A stretch of 64,000 nt of DNA from a virus (IMGVR_UViG_3300028888_000044:323539-387538), one strand, 5' to 3'. Counted from the first letter of the stretch, positions 10,669-41,172 are shown. Translations and numbers: made by a program. Notes: generated from the sequence alone by a model not told the origin.

Positions 10669-10686
10669 ATATATTTAGGTACTTAA
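10669..10686. repeat. palindrome GGTACTTAATTAAGTACC (copy 2)
   Basis: Exact match, 10 nt upstream of ATG 10659. Confidence 0.9.
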
Positions 10687-10705
10687 TTAAGTACCCTATT
10701 TTTTA

Positions 10706-11023
10706 TTATACTCCAGCCATAAATTCAAAATTGAATTCATTACCTTTATCAATTGACTGAAGAAGCTTTTTCCATTCTATATTAATATCCTTCCAAAAGT
10801 AATGACCTTCTTTTGTATCTCGCCAAATAAAAGCATAGAATAATAGTCTTTCTAGCCTAATTGTCTTGTTGATGTACTTATCATAATCCATTTCGTGTCT
10901 CATTGGACTACCATTACAATATGTGCCATAATAACAATTGTAAACAAATTTATCAAAAGCGTTATGTTGTTTTAACAATCTTTCGAATTTACCAAGAATT
11001 TCTTTACGTCTTTCGCTAGTCAT
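10706..11023 (-). CDS. paralog family A protein
   Basis: FERLLKQHNAFDKF ... RDTKEGHYFW. Confidence 0.55.
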   Translation of the reverse strand: MTSERRKEILGKFERLLKQHNAFDKFVYNCYYGTYCNGSPMRHEMDYDKYINKTIRLERLLFYAFIWRDTKEGHYFWKDINIEWKKLLQSIDKGNEFNFEFMAGV

Positions 11024-11333: not shown

Positions 11334-11352
11334 ATCTTTGTTGATGGATATA

Positions 11353-11370
11353 GGTACTTAATTAAGTACC
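11353..11370. repeat. palindrome GGTACTTAATTAAGTACC (copy 3)
   Basis: Exact match, 20 nt upstream of ATG 11333. Confidence 0.9.
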
Positions 11371-11538
11371 CTTATATTATTTTTAATATTTTTTTTGAAA
11401 ATACAATAAACCAACATAAATATATAAAAAAAAATTGATAATGTCAATTATCAAATATTAAAAAATATTAAAAAAAAAAGATGAAGGTCGTTTAAACCTC
11501 CATCTTTAACTTATAACCTGATATATAATATCTTTTTG

Positions 11539-12037: not shown

Positions 12038-12216
12038 AATAGTAAAACAAGTATTAAAAGTTGATATTTCTCATTTTTCGTAATGCAAAATTAATACATT
12101 TTTCTGTAAAAAGCAAGTTTTACAAATTAATTAACCATTTCTTAACTGAATATATAAAAAATGTTAACACAATAAAAAAAGTTGGTAAAAAATTTGGAGA
12201 TGTCATAAAAAAGCAT

Positions 12217-12240
12217 TAACTTTGCAGCGAGGGAAATAGA
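12217..12240 (+). promoter_or_regulatory. conserved box TTAACTTTGCAGCGAGGGAAATAG (copy a)
   Basis: TAacTTTG -7 motif fused to the reiterated GCAGCGAGGGAAA box. Confidence 0.5.
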
Positions 12241-12382: not shown

Positions 12383-12547
12383 TATGCTATTCGAAGTAAC
12401 TGAAAATATTGTAGCTACAACTACAGTCACTGTAGAAGCTGCAAATGAAGATGAAGCTTATGCAAAAGCTGACGAAATTGTTGCAAATATGGATATTTCA
12501 CAGTTTATGTTGGGTGCTAAATTGGAGGGAAATTTGCAGAGAATTTG
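12383..12547 (+). CDS. hypothetical small acidic protein
   Basis: 54-aa ORF followed by strong bidirectional hairpin terminator 12595..12632. Confidence 0.35.
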
Positions 12548-12594
12548 ATTAATAGATTTTGTTTATCATAATTCAAAATTTTATTTCGTTATTT

Positions 12595-12632
12595 TGGAGA
12601 GGTGTGTTTCACAACACATCTCTTTTTTTTTG
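12595..12632. terminator. bidirectional hairpin terminator
   Basis: gagaggtgtgtttcacaacacatctc + T-run. Confidence 0.55.
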
Positions 12633-12650
12633 TCATCAGATGACGCTGCA

Positions 12651-12672
12651 ATTCCCTCGCTGCAAAGATACG
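12651..12672 (-). promoter_or_regulatory. conserved box (copy g, minus orientation)
   Basis: revcomp reads TATCTTTGCAGCGAGGGAAT, followed on that strand by GTCATCTGATGAC hairpin and an A-run, as in copies d and e. Confidence 0.5.
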
Positions 12673-12779
12673 ACTTTTTTTTGAAAGTACCAAATATTTC
12701 TGGTACTTTAACATTTATTTAACACAATAAAAAAAGAGCACCACCTTTTGGGTGATGCCCTTTGCAGAATGTTCACGTG

Positions 12780-13094: not shown

Positions 13095-13112
13095 AATAGT
13101 TGTTTGTTAAAG

Positions 13113-13283
13113 ATTAATAATCGTTACCCTCACCGTCAGTTACACCGCATACATTGTAGCATTCCATTGCATCGGTCATACCGATAAGAAGATTTTTTGT
13201 CTCGGATACTGCGTCTTCAAGTGACACGTCAGAACCGAAGTCCACGCGAACTGTGGCATAAAGTACAATTGGCTTTCCCATAT
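13113..13283 (-). CDS. hypothetical small protein
   Basis: 56-aa ORF MGKPIVLYAT... not in track (<60 aa), packed between neighbours. Confidence 0.3.
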
Positions 13284-13477
13284 TATTCCTCTAAAAGATT
13301 GGTGATTTCTTCGTCAATACTTGCCAAAAGATTGGCTGCGTCAAGAAGTCTGTCCAAAATGTCGGTATTGACCTCTCTACACTGTGCTTTGCGCTTCAAA
13401 GCAATAATTCGAAAGCGAAGGTCGATAGCTTCCTCTCTCGTCTTAATCAAGCCATCCAATTCAAGTTTTTCGTCCAT
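13283..13477 (-). CDS. hypothetical protein
   Basis: ORF 64 aa; minus -7 box CAAAgaTA at 13508..13515, 31 nt upstream. Confidence 0.45.
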   Translation of the reverse strand: MDEKLELDGLIKTREEAIDLRFRIIALKRKAQCREVNTDILDRLLDAANLLASIDEEITNLLEE

Positions 13478-14522: not shown

Positions 14523-14754
14523 TAAGAAGTTACACATTGTAGTCCCTAAAGCTTTGGTGAAGCTTGATAATCTGCAAGTCCGTATGGCTTCAGATTATCC
14601 CTACGACAACAAACCTACCTATGACGAAGCTCGCCAAGAGATTATCAAAATCCTTGAAATGTTTGAAGATGTTAGCTACAATTAGCTAACATTTTTTTTA
14701 TGTGTTAAATAAATGTTAAACCGTCAAAAATATTTGGCGGTTTCAATAAAAAGC

Positions 14755-14780
14755 CTTATCTTTGCAGCGAGGGAAATATG
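14755..14780 (+). promoter_or_regulatory. conserved box TTATCTTTGCAGCGAGGGAAATATGC (copy b)
   Basis: Reiterated box followed by hairpin ccatcctatc..gataggatgg. Confidence 0.5.
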
Positions 14781-14840
14781 CATATATAAAAAAAAACCAT
14801 CCTATCGTGTTGATAGGATGGAAAACTATGAAAAAAGAAA

Positions 14841-15404
14841 CTACTTTTGTATAAGGAACCTCGGAATGTTGCAACCAACGAAGTTACCCAATACAATTAA
14901 AGGATAATACTTAAAAGCATATAGCTGAATCAGATAATGTTCGGCAGAGAACATATAATAAGCATCAGCAATACTGTGATACATTCCACTCAAGATGAAT
15001 GCAGCTACACCGAAAACTACTAACAGTTTGTTGCCTTGCCTACCACTATTGACGATTAACGTCATAATCAGACCACAACCAATACCCTTAAGGAAGTTAT
15101 CAAATTGACCATCAACTATTCGGTCATCAATGATATTGCTTGCCATATCGTGCTCTCCTATAACAAAAGCAACCAATGCACAACCACCGATATTCAAGAG
15201 CAGTATGCCAAGTAGCTGTAGCCATTCCTTTGGCTGTTTATAATTGAAGAATCCAGCTTGCCCAGTGTATAAAGGAAGTTTATATTCAATCACAGCAAGC
15301 AATCCAAAGGAGAAAAGTACGCTACCATACACTTGCCCAACGTTCAGATATACCGCTCCACCAAGGGCAATAAGAACACCCGATAGGATAGAAGACTTAA
15401 TCAT
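14841..15404 (-). CDS. integral membrane protein (about 6 predicted TM helices)
   Basis: Highly hydrophobic 187-aa ORF; could be a small-substrate transporter component, family not identifiable by eye. Confidence 0.5.
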   Translation of the reverse strand: MIKSSILSGVLIALGGAVYLNVGQVYGSVLFSFGLLAVIEYKLPLYTGQAGFFNYKQPKEWLQLLGILLLNIGGCALVAFVIGEHDMASNIIDDRIVDGQFDNFLKGIGCGLIMTLIVNSGRQGNKLLVVFGVAAFILSGMYHSIADAYYMFSAEHYLIQLYAFKYYPLIVLGNFVGCNIPRFLIQK

Positions 15405-16260: not shown

Positions 16261-18132
16261 TTATATTAAACTTGTGTCCTTATGCTGTTGATACATTGAC
16301 TTCTGACTTGGTACGACCTTGAAAGCACCTACCATAGTGTGATACACGAGAAGTCTCATATTGCCGCCAATGCACGTGCCACTGTTCTTGTCAATCTCGG
16401 CATCCAAAACGAGAGAGACGCACGAGAGTCCGAAGTCATCAGTTGTGAGATAGTCACGATTCTTCTCAAGTTGGAATTGCTTGAGCTTGTCAGCTCTGAA
16501 GCCAAACACGAGACTGTCACTTGTGAAACTGTCAAAACGCTTTACTTGGGAAGACACTGCATAATTGTTCTTACCTTGCATGTGCGCCTCATTGAAGTAG
16601 TCATAGCTACAGTCAATGTTTTTATCCTTAAGCATCTTATCAAAGATAATCTTTGCATTCTCTGAACACGACTTGCGTCCCTTGCAACGACTGAAGAAGA
16701 ACTCTACCTCTTCCTTGGTCAAGTCTATAGCGAAGTTACCACAAGGTGCTGAAGCAAGAACCGATGTCGCATCCAATTCGTTTGCACTGCAAACCCATTC
16801 CTTCTCTGTCTTGTCAGTTGGAACATTCTCCCTATCAGCAAAGTTTTGCTCATACTGACTGTACTGTGTGGCGTGGAACTTGTTGACGAAGAACATCGTA
16901 TTCAGTCTTTTGTGCTCAGACCTATATCCACACATACGACCAAGCAAGGCTTGTGCAGTTGCAGCAGCAGACAAGCTGTAGTCATACACTAAGTATGTAT
17001 AGTCCTTGAAGTTGCCGTGAATAGTTACACCAGCTCTGAACGCACCCTTGATTAATACGAGAAGTGGCTTGATAGGTATCTTTTGTTCCAAGAGAATCGG
17101 AAGTGTCACACCTTCGAACTTCTTGTTGAACTCAATGGCATCTATTTGTTCCTTGAGCCTATCAGAAAGCTTGTCATAGTTGAGCTTGCTTGTTGAGGCA
17201 TCCATTTGATAGACATCAAAATTATACTTCACGAAGTTACGCTCTACCAATTCCTCATTTTTGCGTGTACGCACGAAGAAGATACCGTCAATGCCATCAG
17301 ACTTGCAACGAGTCAAGCCCTCACGAAGGGCAAGCAGAATGTCTCCAACGTCCTCACAGTGTGACTTTGCATCGTGGACGAGTCCTTCATTGATGTACTC
17401 GCTGACTCCAACGTAACCACTGTTTGTTGGAAGCTCGATAATCTCCTTGCACTCATTGACATCAGATATTACCTCGCTGAAAGGCGTGGCAGATACTGAA
17501 ACAATATAAATGTTACGCGAAATAAGCTCGTTTGGATTTCTCCAATTGATGCCTTGCTTCTCCAAGAACTGTGTGAGCTTATTCTTCTTGCCGCTACCGT
17601 AATGACATTCGTCAATGAAAAGAATGGAATTGTCAATAGAGCCATCAAAGCCCATCAAGTCACTGTTCTTTAGAAGGAAGTACTTCTTCGGTGTCTTGTA
17701 CTTGAGGGAGCGCTTGCCATTGTAGGTGTTCTCTACAGTTGCATCGCTGACTTGCTTGATGACACGCTCGAACGTTTGCTCCTTGAGACCACAGTCGTTC
17801 ATTCCACAAAGGAAGAAGAACTTGTTTACCATCATAGGTTTATCCAAGTGCAATGCATTGACGATATTGACAACAGCATTAACCGCTCCAGTTTTTCCAC
17901 TTTGCATCTTTGCAATGAGAATAACGTGGTTGCGTCTTGTCTCTGCTCTATTGAAAGCCAAAAGAATGTTCTTTGCGCATTCAATTTGGGTGTCGTGGAT
18001 ATAACCATCGCACCCAATAGAGCCACTTCTGAATAAATTGTTATTAGATGATGTAATAAGATTTGTAATTACTTCTGTTTGAGTAAGAGTTTCTGTCATA
18101 GTTATTTGAATATTTTTGCAAAAATACGCCAA
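16261..18132 (-). CDS. SF2 DEAD/DEAH-box helicase-like protein
   Basis: Walker A AKMQSGKTG, DExH box FIDECH, motif III SVSATP, motif VI-like QALLGRMCGYR. Confidence 0.6.
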   Translation of the reverse strand: MAYFCKNIQITMTETLTQTEVITNLITSSNNNLFRSGSIGCDGYIHDTQIECAKNILLAFNRAETRRNHVILIAKMQSGKTGAVNAVVNIVNALHLDKPMMVNKFFFLCGMNDCGLKEQTFERVIKQVSDATVENTYNGKRSLKYKTPKKYFLLKNSDLMGFDGSIDNSILFIDECHYGSGKKNKLTQFLEKQGINWRNPNELISRNIYIVSVSATPFSEVISDVNECKEIIELPTNSGYVGVSEYINEGLVHDAKSHCEDVGDILLALREGLTRCKSDGIDGIFFVRTRKNEELVERNFVKYNFDVYQMDASTSKLNYDKLSDRLKEQIDAIEFNKKFEGVTLPILLEQKIPIKPLLVLIKGAFRAGVTIHGNFKDYTYLVYDYSLSAAATAQALLGRMCGYRSEHKRLNTMFFVNKFHATQYSQYEQNFADRENVPTDKTEKEWVCSANELDATSVLASAPCGNFAIDLTKEEVEFFFSRCKGRKSCSENAKIIFDKMLKDKNIDCSYDYFNEAHMQGKNNYAVSSQVKRFDSFTSDSLVFGFRADKLKQFQLEKNRDYLTTDDFGLSCVSLVLDAEIDKNSGTCIGGNMRLLVYHTMVGAFKVVPSQKSMYQQHKDTSLI

Positions 18133-18417: not shown

Positions 18418-18442
18418 ATTATATAGTATTATATGTATATAA

Positions 18443-18460
18443 GGTACTTAATTAAGTACC
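18443..18460. repeat. palindrome GGTACTTAATTAAGTACC (copy 4)
   Basis: Exact match. Confidence 0.9.
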
Positions 18461-18562
18461 CTAATCATAATGAGCAAAAGCACCAGCTTTCACAAGCTAA
18501 TGCTTTTTATTACCCCATAAAAAAAAAAGGAGATGATATTATGGAGGTATGAAAAAAAGTGT

Positions 18563-18651
18563 TGGTAGAGATGGATTTGAACCACCGAAGCCTCATAAGA
18601 GGCGGCTGTGCCACTAAACACAGCCCCATTTGACCGCTTTGGTATCTACCG
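18563..18651 (-). tRNA. type-II tRNA-like gene, atypical anticodon loop (tRNA-like 1)
   Basis: revcomp cggtaga-ta-cca-aagcggtcaaa-tgg...gcctcttatgaggc(long variable arm)-ggtgg-ttcaaat-ccatc-tctacca-a. It has U8, a 3-bp D stem, GG in the D loop and a 5-bp T arm with TTCAAAT loop. The 1:72 pair is C:A. The anticodon region ctgtg-tttagtgg-cacag gives an 8-nt loop containing TAG. Confidence 0.5.
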
Positions 18652-18653
18652 AA

Positions 18654-18745
18654 TGGTTGATAGAGAGGGATTCGAACCCCCGAAGCCTCCGAAGAGGCGG
18701 TTGAGCTACTAACACAACCCCATTTGACCGCTTTGGTATCTATCG
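18654..18745 (-). tRNA. type-II tRNA-like gene with encoded CCA (tRNA-like 2)
   Basis: About 80% identical to tRNA-like 1; cgataga...ggggg-ttcgaat-ccctc-tctatca-a-cca. The anticodon stem has a T:T mismatch and a loop ttagtag. Confidence 0.5.
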
Positions 18746-18838: not shown

Positions 18839-19381
18839 TTACTTCAAATACAAGTTCTCCAAACGGTTGTTGAACTTATTACCATCTTTATGGAAAAGAC
18901 GCTGGCCTTCTATTGGACCATTGAATGTTTCATAGACAAGATAACAAGCTGTAAGCTGCACTTGCCCCCAAATACAGTGGCTCAAGCGAACTATAGGATT
19001 CTTGTGGTACTTGTTTGCAGTCTGCTTCAAAACATGCTTGGTATATTTGTTGCGGATACGACCAAGGTTTGAAGCCTCATAGTTAGTAAATGGATAATCC
19101 ATTGTCCTCCAAAACTCAATTTCAACCACGTCATAGTTGCTCACAAGCCATCCATATTCATCAGAAAGATAGTTGTTGATGGCATCATAATCGTCAGCTT
19201 CAATGTAATTTGGAAGCTCTACCTCGGTTGGAAGGGTGATGTCTTCACCATCAGTCTCCCATACAATGTTAATAGCTTTATATTTACAATCCATAGTGAT
19301 ATTGTTTTTTAACGCTGCAAAGATAGGTAATAATCGGCAATGCTGCAACTTTTTTGACACCATTAACAAAACTTTAACCAA
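18839..19381 (-). CDS. HNH homing endonuclease (free-standing)
   Basis: C-terminal HKDGNKFNNRLENLYL HNH motif; immediately upstream of the tRNA-like pair. Confidence 0.55.
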   Translation of the reverse strand: MVKVLLMVSKKLQHCRLLPIFAALKNNITMDCKYKAINIVWETDGEDITLPTEVELPNYIEADDYDAINNYLSDEYGWLVSNYDVVEIEFWRTMDYPFTNYEASNLGRIRNKYTKHVLKQTANKYHKNPIVRLSHCIWGQVQLTACYLVYETFNGPIEGQRLFHKDGNKFNNRLENLYLK

Positions 19382-19435
19382 TATGTTAAATTAATGTTAA
19401 AGTACCAGAAATATTTGGAATTGTCGTGAAAAAGC

Positions 19436-19467
19436 TCTATCTTTGCAGCGAGGGAAATAGCGTACAG
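19436..19467 (+). promoter_or_regulatory. conserved box CTATCTTTGCAGCGAGGGAAATAGCGTACAGC (copy c)
   Basis: Exact reiteration; preceded by TGTTAAATTAATGTTAAAG at 19383..19402. Confidence 0.5.
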
Positions 19468-19525
19468 CAAAAAAAATGGCATCATCTCATTTCGAGATAA
19501 TGCCATTCCTTAATGATGTCAGAAC

Positions 19526-19663
19526 TTATGATACTTGAGCTTGACAATCTACGCCTTCCCAATCACACCACAAACAGTGATAGTGAATATGACCATCGTC
19601 ATAGTTATAACCGTCCGATTCAAGCTTTTCCCCACAAATTGGGCAATAACGTACTTCTTCCAT
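19526..19663 (-). CDS. small zinc-ribbon protein
   Basis: MEEVRYCPICGEKL...HCLWCDW, two CxxC pairs; boundaries approximate. Confidence 0.35.
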   Translation of the reverse strand: MEEVRYCPICGEKLESDGYNYDDGHIHYHCLWCDWEGVDCQAQVS

Positions 19664-19675
19664 AGCTTTAATTGT

Positions 19676-19996
19676 TTACTTTTCAACATGCTCTTGCTGA
19701 ATTTCACCACAGCACAACATAATGTCTCCGTAGGTGATGTCTCTTGGCTGTAACTCGTCCAAACCACGATAGCAAAGAACTTCCTCTGCAAGCTTCTTAT
19801 GCCTTACCACATACTCACGTTTTGGATACGTTATAAAGATGCGCTGTGGGGCTGTAGTATCCTCTTTGTCAGCCAACTTGCCAATTGCGAACCCATTGAA
19901 GCACTCTACGTCATAACAGTGCTCCTTATCGTCTTTGAAGAACTTCTTGTCATAAAAGACAATTTCGTCTTCGAAAATCACGTTTTTTCTTGCCAT
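19676..19996 (-). CDS. hypothetical protein
   Basis: ORF 106 aa, MARK start. Confidence 0.5.
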   Translation of the reverse strand: MARKNVIFEDEIVFYDKKFFKDDKEHCYDVECFNGFAIGKLADKEDTTAPQRIFITYPKREYVVRHKKLAEEVLCYRGLDELQPRDITYGDIMLCCGEIQQEHVEK

Positions 19997-20280
19997 AGTT
20001 TACTTGAATTTGGTTATTAGCTCAATTCTCACCGTTAGTCATAAACACTTCAATAAGCTTGGGAATAAAGCCACAAAAGGCTACAATACCGAAAAATACG
20101 AATGGATGCATCATAATAGTATTGGTTTTTATTGTTAGTACTTGTTTTTGTTTCACTGTGCAAATATAGTGCTTTTAATTGACACTGCAAACAAAAACAG
20201 TAAGTTTAACAAAAGTTTAACTGTATTGTTAAAAAATGTAAAATGGCACTTACTTGCCACTGTAAGTGCCATCGAGTCAA

Positions 20281-20853
20281 TCAAGCTCTCTTGCCTTTTG
20301 AAGTGTTGTGGGCTTGTGTGCCATACTCCTTCCAACCGAAGGTTGCAGCTACGAAAGGACGAATGCTCTTGGTGCGCTTGAAGAACTTCTCTTCGGTGTC
20401 GATAACTCCATTGACAATATCATTCACGATTCTCTCTGCCTCATCGTATGTATCAACATAACGATAGACAACATAGTTCCATCCATCGTGGTGAGCGCCT
20501 TCAGCACGAACATTGTACTTGTCTGCATAGAAGCAAACATCGTCACAACCGATACTTGTGGTGAGCACTTTATTGACGTTAGTACCAATAATCTTGGTTC
20601 CAATTCTGCGACCACACCAAAAGCCCGAATTTGCATAGGCTATAATATAACCAACCCCTTCAATATCGAGGTTTTTGACTTCATCGTCAAACCCATTCAA
20701 AATGCATTGATAGACCCTTTCATCGTCAATATCCTCAACGTCACAGTCATTGCACTCTGCAAGCATTTCGCGTGTTTCCTCAATAACCTTCTCGTCATAA
20801 CAGTCAAAACTGCTGAAAATAGTGAGCTTCACTTTCTTAATGTTCTTTGCCAT
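20281..20853 (-). CDS. hypothetical protein
   Basis: Start moved to internal MAKNIKK (20853), since the minus -7 box CAAAgaTA at 20900..20907 lies inside the longer track ORF. Confidence 0.5.
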   Translation of the reverse strand: MAKNIKKVKLTIFSSFDCYDEKVIEETREMLAECNDCDVEDIDDERVYQCILNGFDDEVKNLDIEGVGYIIAYANSGFWCGRRIGTKIIGTNVNKVLTTSIGCDDVCFYADKYNVRAEGAHHDGWNYVVYRYVDTYDEAERIVNDIVNGVIDTEEKFFKRTKSIRPFVAATFGWKEYGTQAHNTSKGKRA

Positions 20854-21016
20854 AGTTTTATTTGTTTTTAATGTTAGTAATTGTTTTAATTTCACGGTGC
20901 AAAGATAGTGAAAAAATCAATACGCCACAACTTTTTTGACACCATTAACAAAACTTTAACCAATATGTTAAATTAGTGTTAAAGTACCAGAAATATTTGG
21001 AATTGTCACCAAAAAA

Positions 21017-21050
21017 CACTATCTTTGCAGCGAGGGAAAGAGCGTACAGC
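21017..21050 (+). promoter_or_regulatory. conserved box CACTATCTTTGCAGCGAGGGAAAGAGCGTACAGC (copy d)
   Basis: Exact reiteration; 20966..20984 TGTTAAATTAGTGTTAAAG lies upstream; GTCATCAGATGGCAC + A-run lies downstream. Confidence 0.5.
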
Positions 21051-21189
21051 AACTTGTCATCAGATGGCACAAAAAAAAGGACACCCGACAGTAGTCGGAT
21101 GCCCTCCCAAACAAATCTTACTAACCTTAAAAACACGTTGTAGCTCAGATGGGACTCGAACCCATACGGTCGAATGACCAAGGGATTTT

Positions 21190-21970
21190 CTTACTACTCT
21201 TGCTTTGATACAAGCCAACTTCGTGAGTTGTTGTAGTCTGGACTATTTCTTCACCATGCCAATTTGGTTTAGGTGTTTCGTATATAGTCTCTACGCCATT
21301 TAGGATAAATATCCATTTAGTAAGCCATCGCCAAAGTTTATGTCACCATAAACAAGGTTTCTGTTTGTTAGCGAAATTCTACTTCCCAATATTTTTTATT
21401 TATTGTTTTTTCCTTTCGGAAAGGAAGCACTCTTAATGTTTAGACCTCGATAATTATCTGTTTGTGCGTGGCAATTAGGGCATAAAATTTCAAGATTCTC
21501 TAATCTATCATCGGTTGTTATTCCATTTTTATGGTGTAACTCCAATGGTATTTTTTTACCCATCCATTTTGTAAGCCCACAACATTCACATTTTTCTTCT
21601 TTAATTTGTTCTCTAAAAAGCCTATTTTTTAATTTATAAGAACTATAATGAGAATTCTCAACTAATAATTCATCGGTTTTTATTTGGCGTTTAGGATTAA
21701 ATTTTAAACCTATATTCCAACCTTTACCCGTAAAATGTGAAATATCAATTTCATACTTTTCAATAATTTTATGAAGAGTATTATAATTCCCACCACAAGG
21801 TTTTAAATTAAAAAACCTAAGCATTTCAGCAATACTATGTGAACATTTTGCTGCTTCTACATATTCTTCTTTCGTTCTTTCTTTTCTCATATCATATTAC
21901 TTTAATAATAAATAGTACGATATGAGAAAAAGTAATCACGAAATTATGACTATATTTTGGTCTTTACCAA
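21190..21970 (-). mobile_element. group I intron (781 nt) carrying an HNH ORF
   Basis: Inserted between U34 and A35 of the Leu anticodon. The 5' exon ends in U and the intron ends in G. P7 R/S-like elements GCGTAGAGACTATATACG and AAATAGTCCAGACTAC lie in the 3' 200 nt. Confidence 0.65.
21396..21890 (-). CDS. intron-encoded HNH homing endonuclease
   Basis: LELHHKNGITTDDRLENLEILCPNCH HNH motif plus CECCG zinc knuckle. Confidence 0.75.
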   Translation of the reverse strand: MRKERTKEEYVEAAKCSHSIAEMLRFFNLKPCGGNYNTLHKIIEKYEIDISHFTGKGWNIGLKFNPKRQIKTDELLVENSHYSSYKLKNRLFREQIKEEKCECCGLTKWMGKKIPLELHHKNGITTDDRLENLEILCPNCHAQTDNYRGLNIKSASFPKGKNNK

Positions 21971-22050
21971 AAGTCCCTCGCGTCTACCAATTCCGCCACT
22001 GAGCCATCATTTTTGCTATTATATAAAATAAATATAACAAACAAAAAAAA

Positions 22051-22233
22051 TTAAGCTCTTAAGGCTTCAAGTTTTTGCTCTATTGCCTTTGGTGTGATAG
22101 CTTCACCGCCACCGAAGTAAACTGTGCCGTAATAGGTGTCATCGAAAGAGTCATAGACTTCATAACGGCCATTGCCGATAAAGCTCAAGTCCACTTCTCC
22201 ATAACCTTTAACGTAATATGATGTCTTCTTCAT
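22051..22233 (-). CDS. hypothetical small protein
   Basis: ORF; start chosen at MKKTSYYVKG. Confidence 0.4.
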   Translation of the reverse strand: MKKTSYYVKGYGEVDLSFIGNGRYEVYDSFDDTYYGTVYFGGGEAITPKAIEQKLEALRA

Positions 22234-22300
22234 TGTTGTAAGTTTCAAATTAAAAGGGGTGCTTGCTTTTCTTCGGAAGCACCCCAACAGTGAAAATTAG

Positions 22301-22849
22301 TTAGCTTGCAGCTACAGTCACGACTTCAGATGCTACAGTGGGAGTTGAGTCTGCAATTGCCTCGGAAACCATAGCAACGAGCTTCTTCACATCAATGCTC
22401 TTGTCCTTGGCATTGTAAGCCGTGAGTGGAAGAGCATCCACAGCAGACTTGAAAAGTTCAAAGTCAGTGGTGACAGTGTTGTAGATGCTGTAAGCTGCGT
22501 GGTACACGCGGTCGCTTGGGTGCGCGTATCCGAAGTGTGCTCCGAAGTACTTGGCGAACTCTACGATAGCCTTGGCGGTTTCTGCGTTCCACTTCGTATG
22601 AGCTGCGACAAAGCCGCTCAACTTGTATGCGGAAGACGTACAACCTACATAGGTGAGACACGTCATTGGAACACTCATTTCGTCAGCTATCTTGATAGCC
22701 TCCTTGCAGACCTTCTTGAGAAGACCGTACTGACGAAGGTTCAACGAAGGTGCTACAGCCATAACGCGAATGGCATCATTGAGGTTCTTCTTTGCGAAGT
22801 CAGCACCAAGAATTGCACACAGATTCTCTAAAATAATTTTCTTTGCCAT
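22301..22849 (-). CDS. hypothetical Ala-rich protein
   Basis: ORF 182 aa, MAKK start. Confidence 0.5.
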   Translation of the reverse strand: MAKKIILENLCAILGADFAKKNLNDAIRVMAVAPSLNLRQYGLLKKVCKEAIKIADEMSVPMTCLTYVGCTSSAYKLSGFVAAHTKWNAETAKAIVEFAKYFGAHFGYAHPSDRVYHAAYSIYNTVTTDFELFKSAVDALPLTAYNAKDKSIDVKKLVAMVSEAIADSTPTVASEVVTVAAS

Positions 22850-22884
22850 AGTGGTAATTTGTTTTTTAATGTTAGTAAAATTGG

Positions 22885-23160
22885 TTAAAGTAAATTGTTC
22901 TCTTTGAGCAACGATTCTAAATCGGAAGTCTCAAAGACATAAGCATAGTCTTCCAACTCTCTATCGTAGCCGACATTGTGGTCAAGAACAGTGTCTGCGT
23001 CAAGCTCTCCAACTTCAGTGTCATCTACCTTTACGGTGAACTTCTCGTCAGTGAAAGGATTTTCACTATCTGCATCGAACGAGTAGGTCAAGCTAACCTT
23101 GCGTCCGTCAGCCGTATCAAAATTGATAGGCGCTAATAAAGTTTCTACAAAAAGTCTCAT
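22885..23160 (-). CDS. hypothetical acidic protein
   Basis: ORF 91 aa; minus -7 box CAAAgaTA at 23189..23196. Confidence 0.5.
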   Translation of the reverse strand: MRLFVETLLAPINFDTADGRKVSLTYSFDADSENPFTDEKFTVKVDDTEVGELDADTVLDHNVGYDRELEDYAYVFETSDLESLLKENNLL

Positions 23161-23822
23161 AATCGTGTTGTTTATTAATTTTTACACCGCAAAGATACAG
23201 GAGATTTTTGGATTTTCCAAGAAATTTTACGTCTTTAACATTATTTTAACATTTCAGTTAACAAATGTTACTGTACGATACCTAACACCCAAGAAGCCTT
23301 AAAGTACTTCAAAGCTTGGGTCGGTGTCATTGGCTTTGGTGTTTTTTCCATTGTAGGCTGTGAAGCAAGAAGCCCACGTTTGCCTCTATAGCACACCTTC
23401 CAATTTGTGAACCTTTCGGTTATTGTTACGATTTCTTTGTCCATAGTTTTATATGTTTTTTAATTTTTACGGTGCAAAGATAGTGAAAATATCAATACCC
23501 TCAAAGAAATTTCAGTTATTTAACCAGTTTTTAACATATTTGTTAATTGAATTTAACAAAAAAAAATGGACACAGTTTCACAACTATATCCATTTTATCT
23601 TTTTACCTTGTGCCACTTTCACAAGCTCGTCACACGGTAACACATCTTTCATCTTATCGAGTGTTGTGTTTTATTACACTTTTTTCATTAATTTTGCTTT
23701 TCAGTTGATAAAAATACTCGATAAAAAATCCTTTGCCATCACTCTTTCCTCTAATATAAATATATACAATTTTTTATTAAAATCAAAACTTTTTCATATT
23801 TTTTTTAATTTTTTTTTGTTTA

Positions 23823-24062
23823 TTAAATATACTCCAATACCTCACAGTAGATTCTTTCCCTCTCTTCGTCAGTCAAGACAAGCTCTTCACAGTTCTCGTC
23901 TTCGAAAGGATTACCGCACCATACACCTATTTTACCATCCTCGTTCACTACGAGACAGTCCACACGAGCACCATTGTGACGAATGTCGAAGTCACTTACA
24001 ATGATGCAGTTGTCTTCATATTCTTCAAAAAGGTTGCAAATACAAGTTTCAACACTTCCCAT
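23823..24062 (-). CDS. hypothetical acidic Cys-containing protein
   Basis: ORF 79 aa. Confidence 0.45.
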   Translation of the reverse strand: MGSVETCICNLFEEYEDNCIIVSDFDIRHNGARVDCLVVNEDGKIGVWCGNPFEDENCEELVLTDEERERIYCEVLEYI

Positions 24063-24251
24063 AACGTTACTGTTTTCTTTTTTGATGTTAATACTTTATA
24101 GTGTTGCCACACACCATCATTTACGCACTGTTTGGCAAGCTCTTCAGCTTCTTCCTTTGTTTTGAACTTCGTTGGGCTAATACACACACCTTGCTTGGTC
24201 AAAGCAATCAAGAACCATTTTTCATTTGAATTGTTATTAGTTGTTGCCATA
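23996..24251 (-). CDS. hypothetical protein
   Basis: ORF starting MATTNNNSNEKW; minus -7 box near 24272..24285. Confidence 0.45.
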
Positions 24252-24391
24252 CATCTTTGTTTTTTTTCGTGGTGCAAAGTTATGAAATTAATAGCATATC
24301 AGCAAGAAATAATACTGTATTAACAAATTTTTAACAGTATAGTTAAATCCAAGTTAAAGTGCTTAAAATATTTTGTACTCTCACTGAAAAG

Positions 24392-24426
24392 CACTATCTT
24401 TGCAGCGAGGGAAAGAGCGTACAGCT
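24392..24426 (+). promoter_or_regulatory. conserved box CACTATCTTTGCAGCGAGGGAAAGAGCGTACAGC (copy e)
   Basis: Exact reiteration followed by TTGTCATCAAAAGGCAC + A-run and a hairpin that serves as minus-strand terminator for tRNA-Gln. Confidence 0.5.
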
Positions 24427-24512
24427 ACTTGTCATCAAAAGGCACAAAAAAAGCATCGAGCATAATGCCCGATGCAAAAACATTAAAAAACAATAACTAT
24501 TAACAAAGCTTG

Positions 24513-24585
24513 TTGTCCCTCCAAGACTCGAACTCGGACTTTCAGACTCAAATTCTGACGTGCTAACCGACTACACCAAGGGACA
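24513..24585 (-). tRNA. tRNA-Gln(UUG)
   Basis: revcomp tgtccct-tg-gtgt-agtcggtta-gcac-g-tcaga-atTTGag-tctga-aagt-ccgag-ttcgagt-cttgg-agggaca-a. Canonical cloverleaf with anticodon TTG, U33 and A37. Confidence 0.8.
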
Positions 24586-24599
24586 GTGTTGAATTGCTT

Positions 24600-25390
24600 T
24601 TATAAATATATAGAAAAATAAAATATAAAGCAAATAGAAAAGAAAAAAAAAGTGCCGATGGGAGCCAACGTGCCAAGGGACGTGCGATTGTGGGGACCTT
24701 TCTCATCTTCATAGGTCCGCACCGTGCAGTGCGTAGGGGCGATTGTTGTAGCTCTCATCGGCTTTTACCCAAGGGCCGACTGTGCGGCATAGTTATGCGG
24801 CATTAACTATCCTCACTCATTTATTTTGCCGCTAATAATGAGATTATTGGAACCTTGGTTTCAATGGGCATTCTCGTGGACTCGATGGCGTAGAAAGGCG
24901 CAAGTATCTGCTTGTCGGAGTGGCACAGTGACCGCGTAAAGCGTATTATAGTTTGTGCAGACTCGGAATAATGTCTCTCGTGGGAATCGCGCAAGCATAA
25001 ACGCGCGGTAAAATGAGACTTACGTAATGCGTTGTAGCACCTTGGATAGGATATAATCGCCTATCCACGAAAATGCCCGAAAATTTTATATTTCCTTTTA
25101 GCTTGAATACCGATTTCTATCTTGTCGATGTACATAACTTGTGCGCTTGTTGAGCTAATATTATACACGCAGTTTGTTCAATGCACCAAGTATAGAAGAA
25201 ATTAACAGTTTTAATTGGGCTGTCCCCTAATGTGCTGCCTCATAGCTGTAGGATTTACAAGTTACACATACCTTTAGATTCATTTCTCAATTAATAATTT
25301 TGATTTACCCTCAAAGGGGTCGGTCTCTTGCATTCATCGGTATGTCGGTCAGTTAAGTTGTTGATTATTACCCCACTGTTTGGTTGGGCT
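24600..25390. ncRNA. candidate large structured non-coding RNA (GC-rich ORF-free island)
   Basis: About 790 nt with no ORF over 60 aa on any frame and markedly higher GC than the flanks. It has many local hairpins, e.g. gccgactgtgcggc and ggataggatataatcgcctatcc, and sits between tRNA-Gln and a promoter-driven 41-aa ORF. Confidence 0.35.
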
Positions 25391-25391
25391 A

Positions 25392-25517
25392 TCACTTTGC
25401 CCAATAACTACCCTCTTTGGCGAAGATGCTGTAACGAATCTCGTCCTTACCAAACTTGTGCGGTACTGCGAAAACGCGCTTGCTTTCTACTGCTGAATTA
25501 AAACGTCCTTTTGCCAT
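25392..25517 (-). CDS. hypothetical 41-aa protein
   Basis: MAKGRFNSAVESKRVF...; minus -7 box CAAAgaTA about 40 nt upstream at about 25558..25565; coordinates within 2 nt. Confidence 0.35.
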   Translation of the reverse strand: MAKGRFNSAVESKRVFAVPHKFGKDEIRYSIFAKEGSYWAK

Positions 25518-25611
25518 AGTTGTTAGTTGTTTTTATTTGTTTTTATTAATTTTGACGATGCAAAGATAGGGCTTTTATCGTTACCTTGCAAGAAATTTTA
25601 GGTCTTTAACA

Positions 25612-25902
25612 TTATTTTAACACTTCGTGAACAATATTCAAACTTGTTACAACTAAATGAGTGTCATTTGTATTATAAGTGCGTTCACTATACGTGTACT
25701 CACAATACATAATGTCATTGCCATCTGAATTGGTTATCTTCACAACACACTTGTTTTCATTTGGGTCAATACTCTCAACAACGATTGACAGATTTTCACC
25801 CAAAACTTTTTTTAAGTTTGCCACTAAAGATTGTGGAAGATAGGAAATAACCATTCCCACACCAATTCCCAAACGATTGAAAATATCTTGTAATACTGTC
25901 AT
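25612..25902 (-). CDS. hypothetical protein
   Basis: ORF 96 aa. Confidence 0.5.
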   Translation of the reverse strand: MTVLQDIFNRLGIGVGMVISYLPQSLVANLKKVLGENLSIVVESIDPNENKCVVKITNSDGNDIMYCEYTYSERTYNTNDTHLVVTSLNIVHEVLK

Positions 25903-26159
25903 ACCTTATTTATTATTTATGCTTGCGAATAAATACATAAGATGTAAAAGAAGCTGAAGAACATTGGTCTTTCTTTTCCTCTTCAACAATTGGAGATATG
26001 TAATAAGCATTATCCATTATCTCAAGTTTTGTTCCGTTTGCCATAGTTGTTACTGTTTTTTAATTTAGTAACACAAAGATATAATAAATAATAATCAAAT
26101 CCAAGAAATAACTGTGAAAAAATATTAATGTGAATAGATTTTAACATAAGGTACTTATT

Positions 26160-26177
26160 TAAGTACCCTATATAATA
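26160..26177. repeat. palindrome variant GGTACTTATTTAAGTACC (copy 5)
   Basis: 17/18 match to the consensus palindrome. Confidence 0.8.
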
Positions 26178-26225
26178 ATGGCTTGACGATAATCGCCAAG
26201 CCATCTATCAGCAAGTCAGAAGAGA

Positions 26226-26927
26226 TTAGGCATACACAAACGTGATTGACTTGCTTGGGTCATAATCCATAACGTCAGTGCCATCAGATGCCATCTTGAG
26301 AAGAGCGTGAATGCCTTTCGTGGTCGCTGTAATGTTCTCACCGATACGCTCGTTGAGCTGCTTGATGCCCAAACGTTTGCCATCTTTCGAGCCATAGACC
26401 ACTTCCTTGCCCTTATACATTGGATTTGCATAGAGCTGCGCTTCAACACACCCATCAGCTATCTTGTTAATGGCGGTGAGCATATCATCCATTGCATAGG
26501 CAAGCTTCTCAATGTAGCCGTAAATGTCCTTGTCAGACTTCTTCGCTATCTTCTCTATTTTCGCTGCCGCATCAGTTGCCTTGTGGTGAGCTTCCACAAA
26601 TTCCTCGAAGTGTGGCTGAATATGCTCGTCACGAACGATTGTGCGCCAAATGTTGCCCCACTGCTTGTATCCGTGACGGAAGTAAGCCATATAGCTCTTG
26701 GAAAGCTTGAAGCTCGTGTTGATGTTTGCCACTTGCATTGCCAAGAGACGCATGGCGGTGACACTGCGCTTCTTCTTCGCTGCCTTCTTCTCGGCTGCTT
26801 CTGCTGCCTTCTTCTCGGCTCTCTTCATTGCCTTGTACTCACGAAGTGATACCTTGCTTCCATCACTCAAATAGATTGTTGTCTCGTCCAAATAATCGGA
26901 CACACTGAAAGAACGATTCTTTGCCAT
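26226..26927 (-). CDS. hypothetical Lys/Ala-rich protein
   Basis: Start moved to MAKNRSF at 26927; minus -7 box CAAAgtTA at 26973..26980 (46 nt upstream). Confidence 0.5.
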   Translation of the reverse strand: MAKNRSFSVSDYLDETTIYLSDGSKVSLREYKAMKRAEKKAAEAAEKKAAKKKRSVTAMRLLAMQVANINTSFKLSKSYMAYFRHGYKQWGNIWRTIVRDEHIQPHFEEFVEAHHKATDAAAKIEKIAKKSDKDIYGYIEKLAYAMDDMLTAINKIADGCVEAQLYANPMYKGKEVVYGSKDGKRLGIKQLNERIGENITATTKGIHALLKMASDGTDVMDYDPSKSITFVYA

Positions 26928-27100
26928 AGTGCTATTGTTTTTAATGTTAGTAATTGTTTTAATTTCACTGCGCAAAGTTACGCATTTTTTTTGAATCCAC
27001 CAAATTTTTTGGCAAAAAAATGATGTCTATTAAGTTTATTTAACAATTGTGTTAAATTCAGGTTAAAGTCCTTAAAATATTTTGTACTCTCACGAAAAAG

Positions 27101-27129
27101 CACTATCTTTGCAGCGAGGGAAAGAGCGT
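27101..27129 (+). promoter_or_regulatory. conserved box CACTATCTTTGCAGCGAGGGAAAGAGCGT (copy f)
   Basis: Reiterated box, directly followed by palindrome copy 6. Confidence 0.5.
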
Positions 27130-27134
27130 TGTCA

Positions 27135-27152
27135 GATACTTAATTAAGTACC
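27135..27152. repeat. palindrome variant GATACTTAATTAAGTACC (copy 6)
   Basis: 17/18 match. Confidence 0.8.
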
Positions 27153-27320
27153 CTATTGAACAGCACAAAAAAAAGGCATCGACTTTCACAAGCCAATGCC
27201 TTTTTTCTTTTATATTCCTACTGTGCCTTTGTGGTAAAGTGCGATTCGTGCGCTCCCTCGGTACAGTAAAAATATAAATAGTTTCAAGTTTCAATTTAGT
27301 GCACTGTAGAAACTGTTTTT

Positions 27321-28672: not shown

Positions 28673-28840
28673 TAGCTTTGTTGTTTTTTAATGTTAGTAC
28701 TATTGTTTGTTTTTGCGGTGCAAAGTTACGCATTTTTTTTTAATTGTGCAATAGTTTACCCCAAAAAAATGCATTTTGTTTAGATTATTTAACATTTAAC
28801 CTATTTTCAGCTATAAATGACTGTTCAGAGCTGTATTCTT

Positions 28841-28863
28841 TTTCCCTCGCTGCAAAGATAGTG
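28841..28863 (-). promoter_or_regulatory. conserved box (copy h, minus orientation)
   Basis: revcomp reads CACTATCTTTGCAGCGAGGGAAA. Confidence 0.5.
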
Positions 28864-28991
28864 GTTTTTTCAATACCATCCAAATTTTTTGGCAAGAAAA
28901 TGCATTTTGTTTAGATTATTTAACATTTGACCTATAGATACAAAAAAAATGCCCACACTTTTCAGTGTAGGCATTGCAAGCATCTGCCGCG

Positions 28992-29336: not shown

Positions 29337-29469
29337 AGCTTTTAGTTTTTTAATGTTAGTAACTGTTGTTTAATTTTCACGGTGCAAAGATAGTGCTTTT
29401 TTCAATACCATCCAAATATTTTGCAAAGAAAATGATTTTTATTAACATCATTTAACATTTGGAGCTATA

Positions 29470-29487
29470 GATACTTATTTTAGTACC
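29470..29487. repeat. palindrome variant GATACTTATTTTAGTACC (copy 8)
   Basis: Degenerate copy (15/18). Confidence 0.6.
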
Positions 29488-29540
29488 CAAATATATAATG
29501 AAAAATGCTCCACACTTTTCAGTGTGGAGCATCCTCTGCG

Positions 29541-36625: not shown

Positions 36626-37078
36626 TTATTTTATTTCACCATTTTCAGTAATAGTATATTTGTTTGTGCCTATGTAAAAATGAGCAACACCATTAGTAAA
36701 ATTGCTACAATAATCAGCCCATTCCTTTATCAAGAGATTGCCGTTTTTGTCCATATAATTGTATTTCGAATGACCTTTTTTGTAAATTATTACACCAACG
36801 AAATGTTGGCTGCGCGTCACAAAAGTATCTTCAAACCAAATAGGAGAAACTAACTTTCCATCTTGATTGATAAAATTCAACTTGGTAAAAACATCAACTC
36901 TTGCCAACTCTTTCACTCCACCACTTCCAAAGGAATTAACCGATTCAAACCAATCTTTTGAAACGAGTTTTCCTTGTTCATTGATAAAATTCCATAATGG
37001 GCGTAAACCGAATTTATCAAGTTTTGAAACTCTTGCAAAACCATTTGTGAATTTGCCTACAATCTCATACTTTTTCAT
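36626..37078 (-). CDS. WG-repeat protein
   Basis: Repeats N.INQDGKLVS..WFE / YNYMDKNGNLLIKEW like the giant ORF. Confidence 0.5.
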   Translation of the reverse strand: MKKYEIVGKFTNGFARVSKLDKFGLRPLWNFINEQGKLVSKDWFESVNSFGSGGVKELARVDVFTKLNFINQDGKLVSPIWFEDTFVTRSQHFVGVIIYKKGHSKYNYMDKNGNLLIKEWADYCSNFTNGVAHFYIGTNKYTITENGEIK

Positions 37079-37191
37079 ATAAAAATGTTTTTTGTTATTG
37101 TTTTTGTTAATTTTTTACAATGCAAAGATAAGGAGTTTTTTTGGTATTTGCAAATAAATTTTGTTAAAAGAAGTTAACTGTGTTATTTTTT

Positions 37192-39932: not shown

Positions 39933-41168
39933 TTAATAGAAATGAAGAACTTTCTTGAACATATCCACAACATCTTCATAACCAGTATGTTTTCCTTTAT
40001 CCTCACTAATCTTGCAAGTATCGGAGAAGAATGGGTAATTACTATTCTCTTTGATTGCAAGGAGCTTGATAACGATATTCATTGGTTTGATTTCATCTAC
40101 GATACCTTTCCAATCGTTTGTCCAAGCTGTTCCTATTCCATAACTGATTTTAGGATATTCTTTTCCAATGACTTTCTGGATATGGCAAGCATCATCAATT
40201 GACAATGCATTACTGAAGATGATTGTCTTTTCCTTTGGGTCGATGCCAAGAGAGCTGTATTTGTCACAAATCTTGTGGAACTGTTCGAAGTTGTCACCAC
40301 TATCAATTCGAAGTCCATCGAAACAGTTTGCAAAGTCTTTGTTGAAGTTTCGAGCAAAGGCATCGAAACCGTAGGTATCATACAAGTATGTTCCCAAAGC
40401 ACCCTTGAATGTATGCCTCCACTTTTCCATTGCAATCTTATTGGCAAGCAGTGGACCGTACAGACCAGCAATACCGCTAATCCATTCGTGTGCCATTGTT
40501 CCGATTGGTGTGGTGTTGTACTTCATTGCAAGGTAAACGTTAGATGTACCAACGCACTTGCCATTTGTTTGACAAAGTGGTGATATGAATGTTGGTCTAT
40601 TTTTGGTTGCATTAAGCATTGCTTTGAGAGCAGTTTCCTCCGTTTCGAAAGAAGAACGTCTTCGAGTGCCGAAATCAGCCCATACACATCCATTGTCAAT
40701 CATTTGTGCTGCCTTGACAAACGACTTTGTATAATACTTCTTGTAATCGAATTTTTTGTCAAGTTCAGTAATCTTGTAATAGAGTTCTGAAACGATTGCA
40801 AGAACCATTACTTCGAGCAACACAGTTTCTGCCCACAGACCTTCGAAAATGATATGCAGATGTCCATCTGTATCTTGTGAAACGTTAACAAGGTCGGAAT
40901 TGAATCGGAATCCACGAAGATAAGTGAAGAACCATTGTGGAAGGTACTTGCACTTTTCCTTCATAAAGTTGATTTCTTCTTCTGTGATTGTCAATGTTTC
41001 GAGAGTTTGTATTTCGGCTTTTAAGAATTGGTCAAAATGTTTTGGATAAACTGTTTTGTTCCTATCAACAAACTCGTACCTTACGATTGCATCTGGAAAG
41101 TTATCCACGATTGCGCAGCACATTGTAAGTTTGTACAAGTCTGTATCTGTAAAGTGTTTAATAATCAT
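39933..41168 (-). CDS. nicotinate/nicotinamide phosphoribosyltransferase-like (type II PRTase, PncB/NadV family)
   Basis: ADFGTRRRSSF and PIGTMAHEWISG motifs, characteristic of the NAPRTase family. Start set at MIIKHFTDTDLYK just downstream of the stop of the upstream gene. Confidence 0.6.
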   Translation of the reverse strand: MIIKHFTDTDLYKLTMCCAIVDNFPDAIVRYEFVDRNKTVYPKHFDQFLKAEIQTLETLTITEEEINFMKEKCKYLPQWFFTYLRGFRFNSDLVNVSQDTDGHLHIIFEGLWAETVLLEVMVLAIVSELYYKITELDKKFDYKKYYTKSFVKAAQMIDNGCVWADFGTRRRSSFETEETALKAMLNATKNRPTFISPLCQTNGKCVGTSNVYLAMKYNTTPIGTMAHEWISGIAGLYGPLLANKIAMEKWRHTFKGALGTYLYDTYGFDAFARNFNKDFANCFDGLRIDSGDNFEQFHKICDKYSSLGIDPKEKTIIFSNALSIDDACHIQKVIGKEYPKISYGIGTAWTNDWKGIVDEIKPMNIVIKLLAIKENSNYPFFSDTCKISEDKGKHTGYEDVVDMFKKVLHFY

Positions 41169-41172
41169 AAAA

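Follow-up and report, generated by a model that had tools for sequence, protein, structure and literature searches.

A conserved class of orphan, mostly antisense candidate promoters in the ORFan region of an uncultured rumen Bacteroidota phage

A short box recurs eight times in a 64,000-nt stretch of viral DNA (IMGVR_UViG_3300028888_000044, positions 323539-387538; the whole stretch is called the window here, and all coordinates count from its first letter). The box appears to mark a conserved orphan, mostly antisense promoter class that is shared by a clade of uncultured rumen Bacteroidota phages. Two promoter classes built on one frame are distinguished throughout: class I is the frame as it drives the small genes of the region, and class II comprises the boxed copies. 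The reading towards which we lean is that class II is a host-type promoter class placed in cassettes that resemble the promoter-early stem-loop (PeSL) cassettes of T4-type phages, that it would give rise to short orphan or antisense transcripts, and that its role would be in cis. Within this reading, the production of orphan or antisense RNA is predicted with moderate confidence, and a specific cis role of the class II promoters with low confidence. What is new here is a two-way cassette whose backward arm is a distinct promoter class without a gene.

The repeated box and its conservation

Alignment of the eight copies, which lie between 12.2 and 28.9 kb and are named by core position (Table 1), defines an invariant 19-nt core, TA(T/A)CTTTGCAGCGAGGGAA. 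The string TTTGCAGCGAGGGAAA has eight matches in the window with at most one mismatch. For this 16-nt core the expectation from shuffled sequence is 0.42, and none of 100 shuffles reached nine matches; the repeat reported in a first-pass annotation of this DNA is thus genuine. That annotation had described a box of ~35 nt in eight copies, a count that stands for the 19-nt core and not for the full 31-nt string, which is found in only three to four places. The full string is exact at 21020 and 24395, has one mismatch at 19438 and, when up to three mismatches are allowed, is also found at 28860 on the minus strand with all three. Divergence from it begins after GGGAA in the other four copies.

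Conservation is strongly uneven along the module. The mean pairwise identity of the eight copies is 0.99 in the 19-nt core and 0.91 in the -33 element; it is 0.60 in the spacer between the -33 and -7 elements, 0.58 in the upstream region, 0.40 in the 12 nt past the core and 0.30 in the 20 nt beyond those. Because the core has remained 0.99 identical while the free segments have diverged, the core is under constraint and the copies are old. The near-identity claimed earlier for the copies at 19330..19470 and 20920..21055 was recovered as 87% identity across 163 nt (19308-19470 against 20890-21052). A hairpin followed by an A-run had also been ascribed to four copies; the A-run follows the box in six copies, and the GTCATCnGATGRC hairpin is intact in only two (12632-12644 and 21056-21068) and degenerate at 24399.

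The repetitiveness of the box could by itself raise the suspicion of an assembly artefact or a collapsed repeat. The flanks are unique for each copy, and independent assemblies of other samples (IMG/VR, JGI, ENA and NCBI contigs) contain the same copies. This rules out the single mis-assembled repeat about which the first-pass annotation had cautioned, and it leaves an artefact of any such kind exceedingly improbable.

Promoter anatomy

The core corresponds to the -7 box, together with the following 11 nt, of a complete Bacteroidota-type promoter. TAnnTTTG opens all eight copies (as TATC in seven and TAAC in one), in agreement with the earlier view of the box opening as a Bacteroidota -7 motif, and AAATATTTGG, with the -33 TTTG, is found 20 nt upstream of TAnnTTTG in 8/8. 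The 20-nt spacer of the class II copies carries a conserved AAAAG, and the spacer element TCGTGnAAAAGC is part of the class II module. Two GTTAAA sites, 11 nt apart, lie upstream of the -33 element. The resulting frame of ~90 nt runs in the order GTTAAA twice, TTTG at -33, 20-nt spacer, TAtcTTTG, CAGCG and AGGGAA.

The sigma-A consensus of Bacteroides consists of TTTG near -33 and TAnnTTTG near -7 (PMC7366714). Class II matches the motifs and the spacing of this canonical promoter exactly; unlike it, class II adds the invariant CAGCG AGGGAA after the -7 box and has a conserved spacer sequence and the two upstream GTTAAA sites (PMC7366714). The -7 element expected for the Bacteroidota primary sigma factor (sigma-ABfr type) is present in the eight window copies and in 27 of 27 instances across relatives. 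The corresponding -33 element, TTTG with an AT-rich spacer of ~19-21 nt, is present in 8 of 8 copies.

Class I and class II have the same -33 and -7 elements and differ only in the spacer and the start region. In class I, which serves the small minus-strand genes of the region, the frame leads into CACCGTGAAAATTAAAC and an A-rich leader, with an ATG ~45 nt downstream. Four class II copies (-7 boxes at 19438, 21020, 24395 and 27104) stand back to back with a class I promoter, and four TTAA-type sites form a symmetric block between the divergent promoters. The back-to-back arrangement with the minus-strand promoter of the next gene, as first described, holds for these four plus-strand copies. 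The distance of 130-190 nt given for it does not; the -7 elements are 113, 113, 113 and 124 nt apart. The same 113-nt geometry is found in the pair 13516-/13629+, which has genes on both sides.

The frame itself is widespread. The pattern GTTAAA-N5-GTTAAA-N34-38-TAnnTTTGCA was found at at least 119 IMG/VR loci, where a rough estimate gives ~0.5 by chance, and among the matches listed it is mostly followed by an A-rich leader and then an ATG. Because so many loci share the frame, mostly with a leader and an ATG, the box is likely a working promoter. Confidence is high that it is a promoter, and it would be read by the host primary-sigma RNA polymerase; its firing and its start site we infer from these sequence features. 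Outside this phage TTTGCAGCG is common, and AGGGAA after TTTGCAGCG is confined to the lineage of this phage. The peculiarity of the box thus appears to be its start region and not its frame.

Two observations on the frame stand apart from class II. Paired GTTAAA (or TTAAC), 11 nt apart and ~36 nt before TAnnTTTG, is a widespread upstream element of Bacteroidota phage promoters (at least 119 loci, L027-L144) and might act as an UP-like element or as a site for an activator. At L080, L146, L148, L153, L154 and about ten further IMG/VR loci, in unrelated gut phage contigs, a conserved non-coding leader, TTCAATAAATATATCGGGAGAGAAATAGGAAGCTCTTCCGTCAATTCGGTGGAGCATTTTTTATGCTC, comes after the frame; this leader may be a structured RNA or a riboregulator. 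Mimicry of a host promoter or of a CRISPR repeat was considered for the 19-mer and rejected: a search of 185,579 species genomes gave three matches, none of them in Bacteroidota and none in an array.

Transcribed regions and facing terminators

No credible open reading frame (ORF) follows seven of the eight copies in the window. A leader peptide is not indicated either, as ATGs after the box are missing or open only non-conserved frames of 3-20 codons. The remaining copy, c12221, is the only one with a plausible downstream gene, a 54-aa ORF at 12384-12548. In six of the eight cases the promoter is directed at a convergent gene's terminator, at a distance of 15-60 nt. The hairpins faced in this way contain G-U pairs on the gene strand, which become C-A mismatches on the opposite strand, and they are followed by 7-8 U on the gene side. 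All six are weaker on the class II strand, and five of them have no U tail there. Of the six copies, c27108 alone encounters a U-run in its direction, and the hairpin at 27175..27200 is the only terminator usable both ways.

Because these terminators act mainly in the direction of the genes, class II transcripts would either be very short (50-100 nt, with an inefficient stop) or extend as antisense read-through. Read-through into the coding region is likely since 5/6 hairpins lack the U tail, and on the same sequence features a short product appears no more likely than read-through antisense RNA. The discrete 40-70-nt product proposed in the first-pass annotation is therefore not assured. Its description of the box as a promoter that faces away from the local genes in most copies is sustained by the perfect -33/-7 geometry, the widely shared upstream element, the missing ORF, the faced terminator of the neighbour and the persistence of this arrangement in relatives. 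As for cis-antisense RNA, the layout is convergent in 6/8 copies and a transcript would certainly overlap the terminator hairpin; overlap with a coding region hinges on the predicted read-through.

No RNA family was recognized in Rfam over 18-29 kb, whether at the gathering threshold or at E values up to 1. A conserved RNA fold was tried and rejected, the copies giving different single hairpins, and both an AGAGC/GCUCU mini-stem and a pairing of the 5' GGGAA with a downstream UUCCC proved inconsistent across copies. A search of the window for antisense targets of the conserved leader gave two 10-mers only, which is the chance level.

Relatives and concerted evolution

The 120-kb contig IMGVR_UViG_3300028805_000076 (= Ga0247608_10000173) is ~95% identical to the window and carries all eight copies. 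Seven of them, all located in the same region, have an exact core; in the eighth, GGG is replaced by GGA. A search of viral contigs with a single protein found only this relative. Comparison of orthologous copies gives AGAGCGTACAGC in two and ATAGCGTACAGC in a third copy of the window, where the relative has AGAGCATACAGC in all three. At c24399 the relative carries a clustered block, GTACCAGAAATA, identical to that of the paralogues c19442 and c21024, and the window has GTGCTTAAAATA. These patterns indicate that the copies evolve in concert within a genome, with a conversion tract at c24399.

The window and this relative also differ by larger changes. A two-gene indel at 13101-13475 is joined via the shared gene-start sequence CATAATAGTT, which suggests that the class I 5' leader and start region is also a recombination point. 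A gene replacement begins 17 nt past the terminator beside c19442 (boundary 19522), a gene is missing at 36633-37104, and a palindrome is inserted at 23555. The interval 23270-23555 was considered as a swapped cassette and dismissed, because finer BLAST comparison resolves it into insertions of 50 nt and 36 nt in the relative.

More distant sequences carry the class as well. The box occurs in the same module in the short metagenome contigs L015, L020, L023 and L024, whose proteins are 40-93% identical; since these were retrieved with the exact 19-mer, they are uninformative on conservation of the core. An exact 20-mer in L016/L021, on a contig otherwise unrelated, was not counted, as it may be due to chance given the many TATCTTTGCA promoters in metagenomes. 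Unbiased relatives were taken as homologues of the helicase-like protein encoded at 16261-18132. Of these, L178 (70% protein identity) has 11 class II promoters in 18 kb, eight of them antisense to an all-plus gene array and three in tandem upstream of class I. Five class II promoters are found in L180 (58% protein identity), and none in the 16-22 kb of L181-L184 (47-55% identity).

The 27 instances have TATCTTTGCAG(C/T)G and the spacer TCGTGnAAAAGCnC in common, and TATCTTTGCAGYG is conserved in the class II promoters of L178 and L180 as in the window. The start sequence varies by lineage: AGGGAA in the lineage of the window, GGG(G)(G)AA in L178 and CGAAA in L180. The transcribed bodies span 10-60 nt and do not align from one lineage to another; as a rule they hold one hairpin and end in (T)ATA followed by A7-9 before the terminator hairpin of the neighbour. 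Because promoter, orientation, position and start bases are conserved and the RNA body is not, initiation or its control probably matters, rather than a sequence-specific RNA product.

Proposed role and alternative explanations

In the mechanism proposed here, the host primary-sigma RNA polymerase would initiate at class II, with the box supplying the -7 element and discriminator as well as the bases transcribed first. Placed beside the terminator of the preceding cassette, and usually back to back with the class I promoter of the next gene, class II would fire toward that terminator and produce transcripts that are either 50-100 nt long or run on antisense into the preceding gene. Convergent transcription and antisense RNA at the 3' end would then damp or insulate each cassette. 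The repeated cassettes are also homogenised by gene conversion and could provide homology for cassette shuffling, as in T4-type PeSLs.

Several observations weigh against this proposal. Copy c12221 probably drives the 54-aa ORF and would then not be purely antisense, and c28856- stands in tandem upstream of a class I promoter, with which it forms a tandem duplication of the promoter module. Tandem or gene-driving copies are also present in the relatives (L178 at +2525, +8387 and +15474; L180 at +919). Free-standing mini-units, such as c14761 and c12666- with their terminators on both flanks, and L023, indicate that a divergent partner is not required. Interference in cis alone leaves six invariant, lineage-specific nucleotides at the start site unexplained. 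As to recombination, only one gene-replacement boundary (19522) adjoins a class II/terminator module and the other indels end at gene starts, so that PeSL-like shuffling at the boxes is weakly supported.

The stand-alone copies would be at home in a different explanation, according to which class II units are multi-copy genes for small trans-acting RNAs, each with a purine-rich 5' end, a hairpin, an A-tract and a terminator hairpin, that act on host or phage targets or serve as decoys. The copies c14761, c12666- and L023 are self-contained between two terminators, and a good two-way terminator and RNAs of ~90 nt are predicted at L023, L024, L178 -5653 and -6983, and c27108. The small hairpin has two U-G wobble pairs that form only in RNA of the box (plus) strand, and copies are numerous, with as many as 11 in 18 kb. 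Nevertheless, this explanation is unlikely. The conserved seed or structure of a trans-acting RNA is not seen: conservation within a lineage covers ~6-7 transcribed nucleotides, which differ between lineages (AGGGAA, GGGGGAA, CGAAA), and the bodies, some just 12 nt long, do not align. Nor is there a complementary target in the window above chance, a match in Rfam or a conserved structure, and at most faced hairpins the U tail is missing in the class II direction.

In line with the site for a phage factor that the first-pass annotation had offered as an option, the invariant start region could instead be the recognition site of a phage-encoded factor that switches class II. Such a factor might be a repressor that sits on +1, or a Q-like or ops-like loader through which polymerase would disregard terminators, with an antisense sweep back through the early genes at a set time as the outcome. 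The lambdoid PR'-tR' units, in which a promoter is closely followed by a terminator, have the same layout. The start region is invariant within each genome and specific to each lineage, the class-specific spacer TCGTGnAAAAGCnC is kept across lineages, and two promoter classes with the same -33 and -7 elements and different start regions coexist in each genome. The lineage-specific start sequence fits a co-evolving factor and gene conversion equally, however, and gene conversion alone can explain the uniformity within a genome. All eight sites lie inside promoters and none stands alone, so that a separate factor is not needed; most terminators that class II faces are weak in that direction to begin with, so that antitermination would be superfluous; and no candidate factor was identified. 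A switch of this kind is therefore about as improbable as the small RNAs. Less probable still is that the backward arm is a passenger, in other words that copies of a two-way cassette spread through a one-way gene array by duplication, the idle arm being kept uniform by gene conversion and having a role only as recombination homology. The pair 13516-/13629+, which shares the 113-nt geometry with genes on both sides, the concerted evolution with mosaic copies, and the gain and loss of cassettes between close relatives would all follow from such a history. An idle arm should decay, yet conservation is highest at the -33 element, at the -7 element and in the start region while the spacer is at 60%; moreover, the class persists at 58-70% protein identity, and stand-alone copies occur without a divergent partner.

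Roles as a replication origin or primer, in transcription-driven DNA entry, or in coupling divergent promoters through supercoiling were set aside on layout, because a hairpin is met within 15-60 nt and because stand-alone copies have no partner. A broader possibility, doubtful in our estimate, is a genome-wide regulatory layer in this small clade of phages, in which almost all early ORFan cassettes would have one specialised promoter class, with its lineage-specific start signature, after their one-way terminators. It would act through a factor-switched, global antisense shut-off of the early genes or through high-copy trans RNAs (for instance decoys).

Comparison with known systems

The closest known counterpart is the PeSL cassette of T4-type phages (Arbiol et al., 2010, PMC2839356; Comeau et al., 2014, PMC4122927). 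Both cassettes combine a repeated host-type promoter with an AT-rich upstream element and an adjacent terminator stem-loop, both lie in regions of small ORFans, homing endonucleases and tRNAs, and in both the copies recombine with one another and cassettes are gained or lost between close relatives. In the window, promoter and stem-loop are 15-60 nt apart, but the promoter faces the stem-loop; clustering in a plastic ORFan region is clear, with all copies at 12-29 kb. Unlike PeSLs, the class II cassette belongs to a Bacteroidota phage and has a -33/-7-type promoter, and it contains two promoters back to back, of which the boxed one faces the stem-loop and lacks a gene. At the boxes themselves, recombination is seen here only as gene conversion, which is clear; beyond it there is one replacement near c19442, and the other indels are at gene starts or at a palindrome. 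PeSLs belong to T4-like myoviruses; the present phage is an uncultured rumen phage of ~120 kb, probably with a Prevotella host, and a short tRNA-like stretch is its only DNA match in the phage collection.

Antisense transcription from the 3' end of a gene has parallels elsewhere. The lambda OOP transcript is a 3'-end antisense RNA, and the synthetic design of Brophy and Voigt reportedly places an antisense promoter behind a one-way terminator. Class II is like both in having a promoter at the 3' end of a gene that faces the gene across a one-way terminator, a layout that would be expected to make polymerases collide and to give an RNA duplex at the 3' end. Class II is unlike both in recurring after many cassettes with one dedicated conserved sequence, in having some copies in tandem with a gene promoter, and in that its overlap with coding sequence hinges on predicted read-through. 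A synthetic study reports that antisense transcription can tune the expression of a gene (Brophy and Voigt, 2016, PMC4731013). In Pseudomonas phages (LUZ19 P001, PAK_P3), conserved antisense promoters and antisense RNAs have been mapped (PMC10914365). Like class II, these promoters are directed against the gene array and are conserved in sequence and position among relatives. However, they are single or few per genome and in LUZ19 are read by the phage polymerase, whereas class II has 8-11 host-type copies (PMC10914365).

Genomic setting and other features

The region from 12 to 31 kb consists of small ORFans, tRNAs and two HNH endonuclease genes (18839-19294 and 21396-21890), and all class II copies lie among these within 12-29 kb. 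Coordinates of the copies and of the hairpins near them are collected in Table 1.

Table 1. Class II promoter copies and associated hairpins in the window
Feature	Position	Strand	Elements	Setting
Class II copy c12221	12161..12236	+	-7 box TAACTTTG 12217-12224; start region CAGCGAGGGAA 12225-12235	
Terminator of the c12221/ORF 12384-12548 unit	12596..12625	+		faced by c12666-
Class II copy c12666	12652..12735	-	-7 box 12670-12663; start region 12662-12652	same-strand terminator 12763-12733 upstream; faces hairpin 12632-12644 and plus-strand terminator 12596-12625
Class II copy c14761	14692..14776	+	-7 box 14757-14764; start region 14765-14775	stand-alone unit between plus-strand terminator 14665-14696 and minus-strand terminator 14797-14821
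Terminator of gene 14841-15404	14797..14821	-	8 U on gene strand, 2 U in class II direction	faced by c14761
Class II copy c19442	19364..19468	+	GTTAAA 19387, 19398; -33 TTTG; -7 box 19438-19445; start region and conserved leader reach 19468	divergent partner class I promoter 19325-19318
Terminator of convergent gene cassette	19477..19506	-	-17.9 kcal/mol, 8 U; class II direction -14.0 kcal/mol, 4 U	faced by c19442
Class II copy c21024	20946..21050	+	-7 box 21020-21027; 31-nt box exact	divergent partner class I promoter 20907-20900
Small hairpin GUCAUCAGAUGGC	21056..21068	+	U-G wobble pair possible only in plus-strand RNA	downstream of c21024
Terminator after tRNA-like/HNH cassette	21075..21108	-	-20.7 kcal/mol, 7 U; class II direction -11.5 kcal/mol, 0 U	faced by c21024
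Class II copy c24399	24321..24425	+	-7 box 24395-24402; 31-nt box exact	divergent partner class I promoter 24282-24275
Terminator after tRNA-Gln	24453..24475	-	-14.6 kcal/mol, 7 U; class II direction -10.7 kcal/mol, 1 U	faced by c24399
Class II copy c27108	27030..27129	+	-7 box 27104-27111	divergent partner class I promoter 26980-26973, 124 nt off
Hairpin faced by c27108, with A8 left and T6CT4 right	27175..27200		gene strand -15.5 kcal/mol; class II direction -5.7 kcal/mol	
Class II copy c28856	28830..28935	-	-7 box 28860-28853	gene orientation; after terminator 28975-28948; 132 nt upstream of class I promoter 28728-28721

A BLAST search of 19-28 kb against a phage collection gave a single match of 80 nt, tRNA-like, in Prevotella Lak megaphages. 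The stretch concerned, 21128-21260 on the minus strand, resembles the 3' part of a tRNA (variable-arm-like hairpin, T arm and acceptor strand) and has an HNH endonuclease gene upstream of it. Its identity is 85% to the Lak megaphage stretch and 96% in contig L020, and ARAGORN, even with introns allowed, does not call a tRNA there. Two tandem tRNA genes of 91-92 nt with long variable arms are found at 18561-18745 on the minus strand. The calls are a four-base anticodon (tagt) for one and Thr(agt) for the other, identities that are doubtful; they may be of the Leu or Ser type, or suppressors.

Between tRNA-Gln and the promoter at 25568-, ~780 nt (24590-25370) contain no ORF longer than 57 aa and are partly GC-rich. 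This stretch is 96% conserved in the 95% relative, which has a 174-nt insertion at 25372; it has no match in Rfam, and its fold energy is like that of shuffled sequence (z = -0.24). A near-perfect palindrome, GGTACTTAATTAAGTACC, occurs in six copies at gene ends (10673-10710, 11348-11385, 18438-18475, 26145-26182, 27130-27167 and 29465-29502). Because it is present in the 95% relative at the equivalent of 23555 and absent there from the window, it appears to be gained and lost in the manner of a small mobile or indel-prone element. L178 and L180 hold similar copies, and the palindrome could be a protein site or an RNA hairpin.

Further along, a 2381-aa protein with WG beta-repeats and no PHROG match is encoded at 48446-55591 (+). 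The window also encodes two RNA ligases, a polynucleotide-kinase-like (AAA_33 type) protein and a NAPRTase; the loci listed with this set are 48446-55591 (+), 55957-58152 (-), 39933-41270 (-) and 61605-62204 (+). The RNA ligases, the kinase and the NAPRTase suggest tRNA repair and NAD salvage.

Implications

Transcription control in Bacteroidota phages is almost unmapped, and this locus offers a compact, testable case. If class II fires, it would be a natural instance of the tuning or insulation of gene cassettes by antisense promoters. It would also provide a Bacteroidota counterpart of the PeSL cassettes that are thought to drive gene shuffling in T4-like phages. The frame with its GTTAAA sites is, in addition, a candidate for a strong, portable promoter part in the engineering of Bacteroides and Prevotella.

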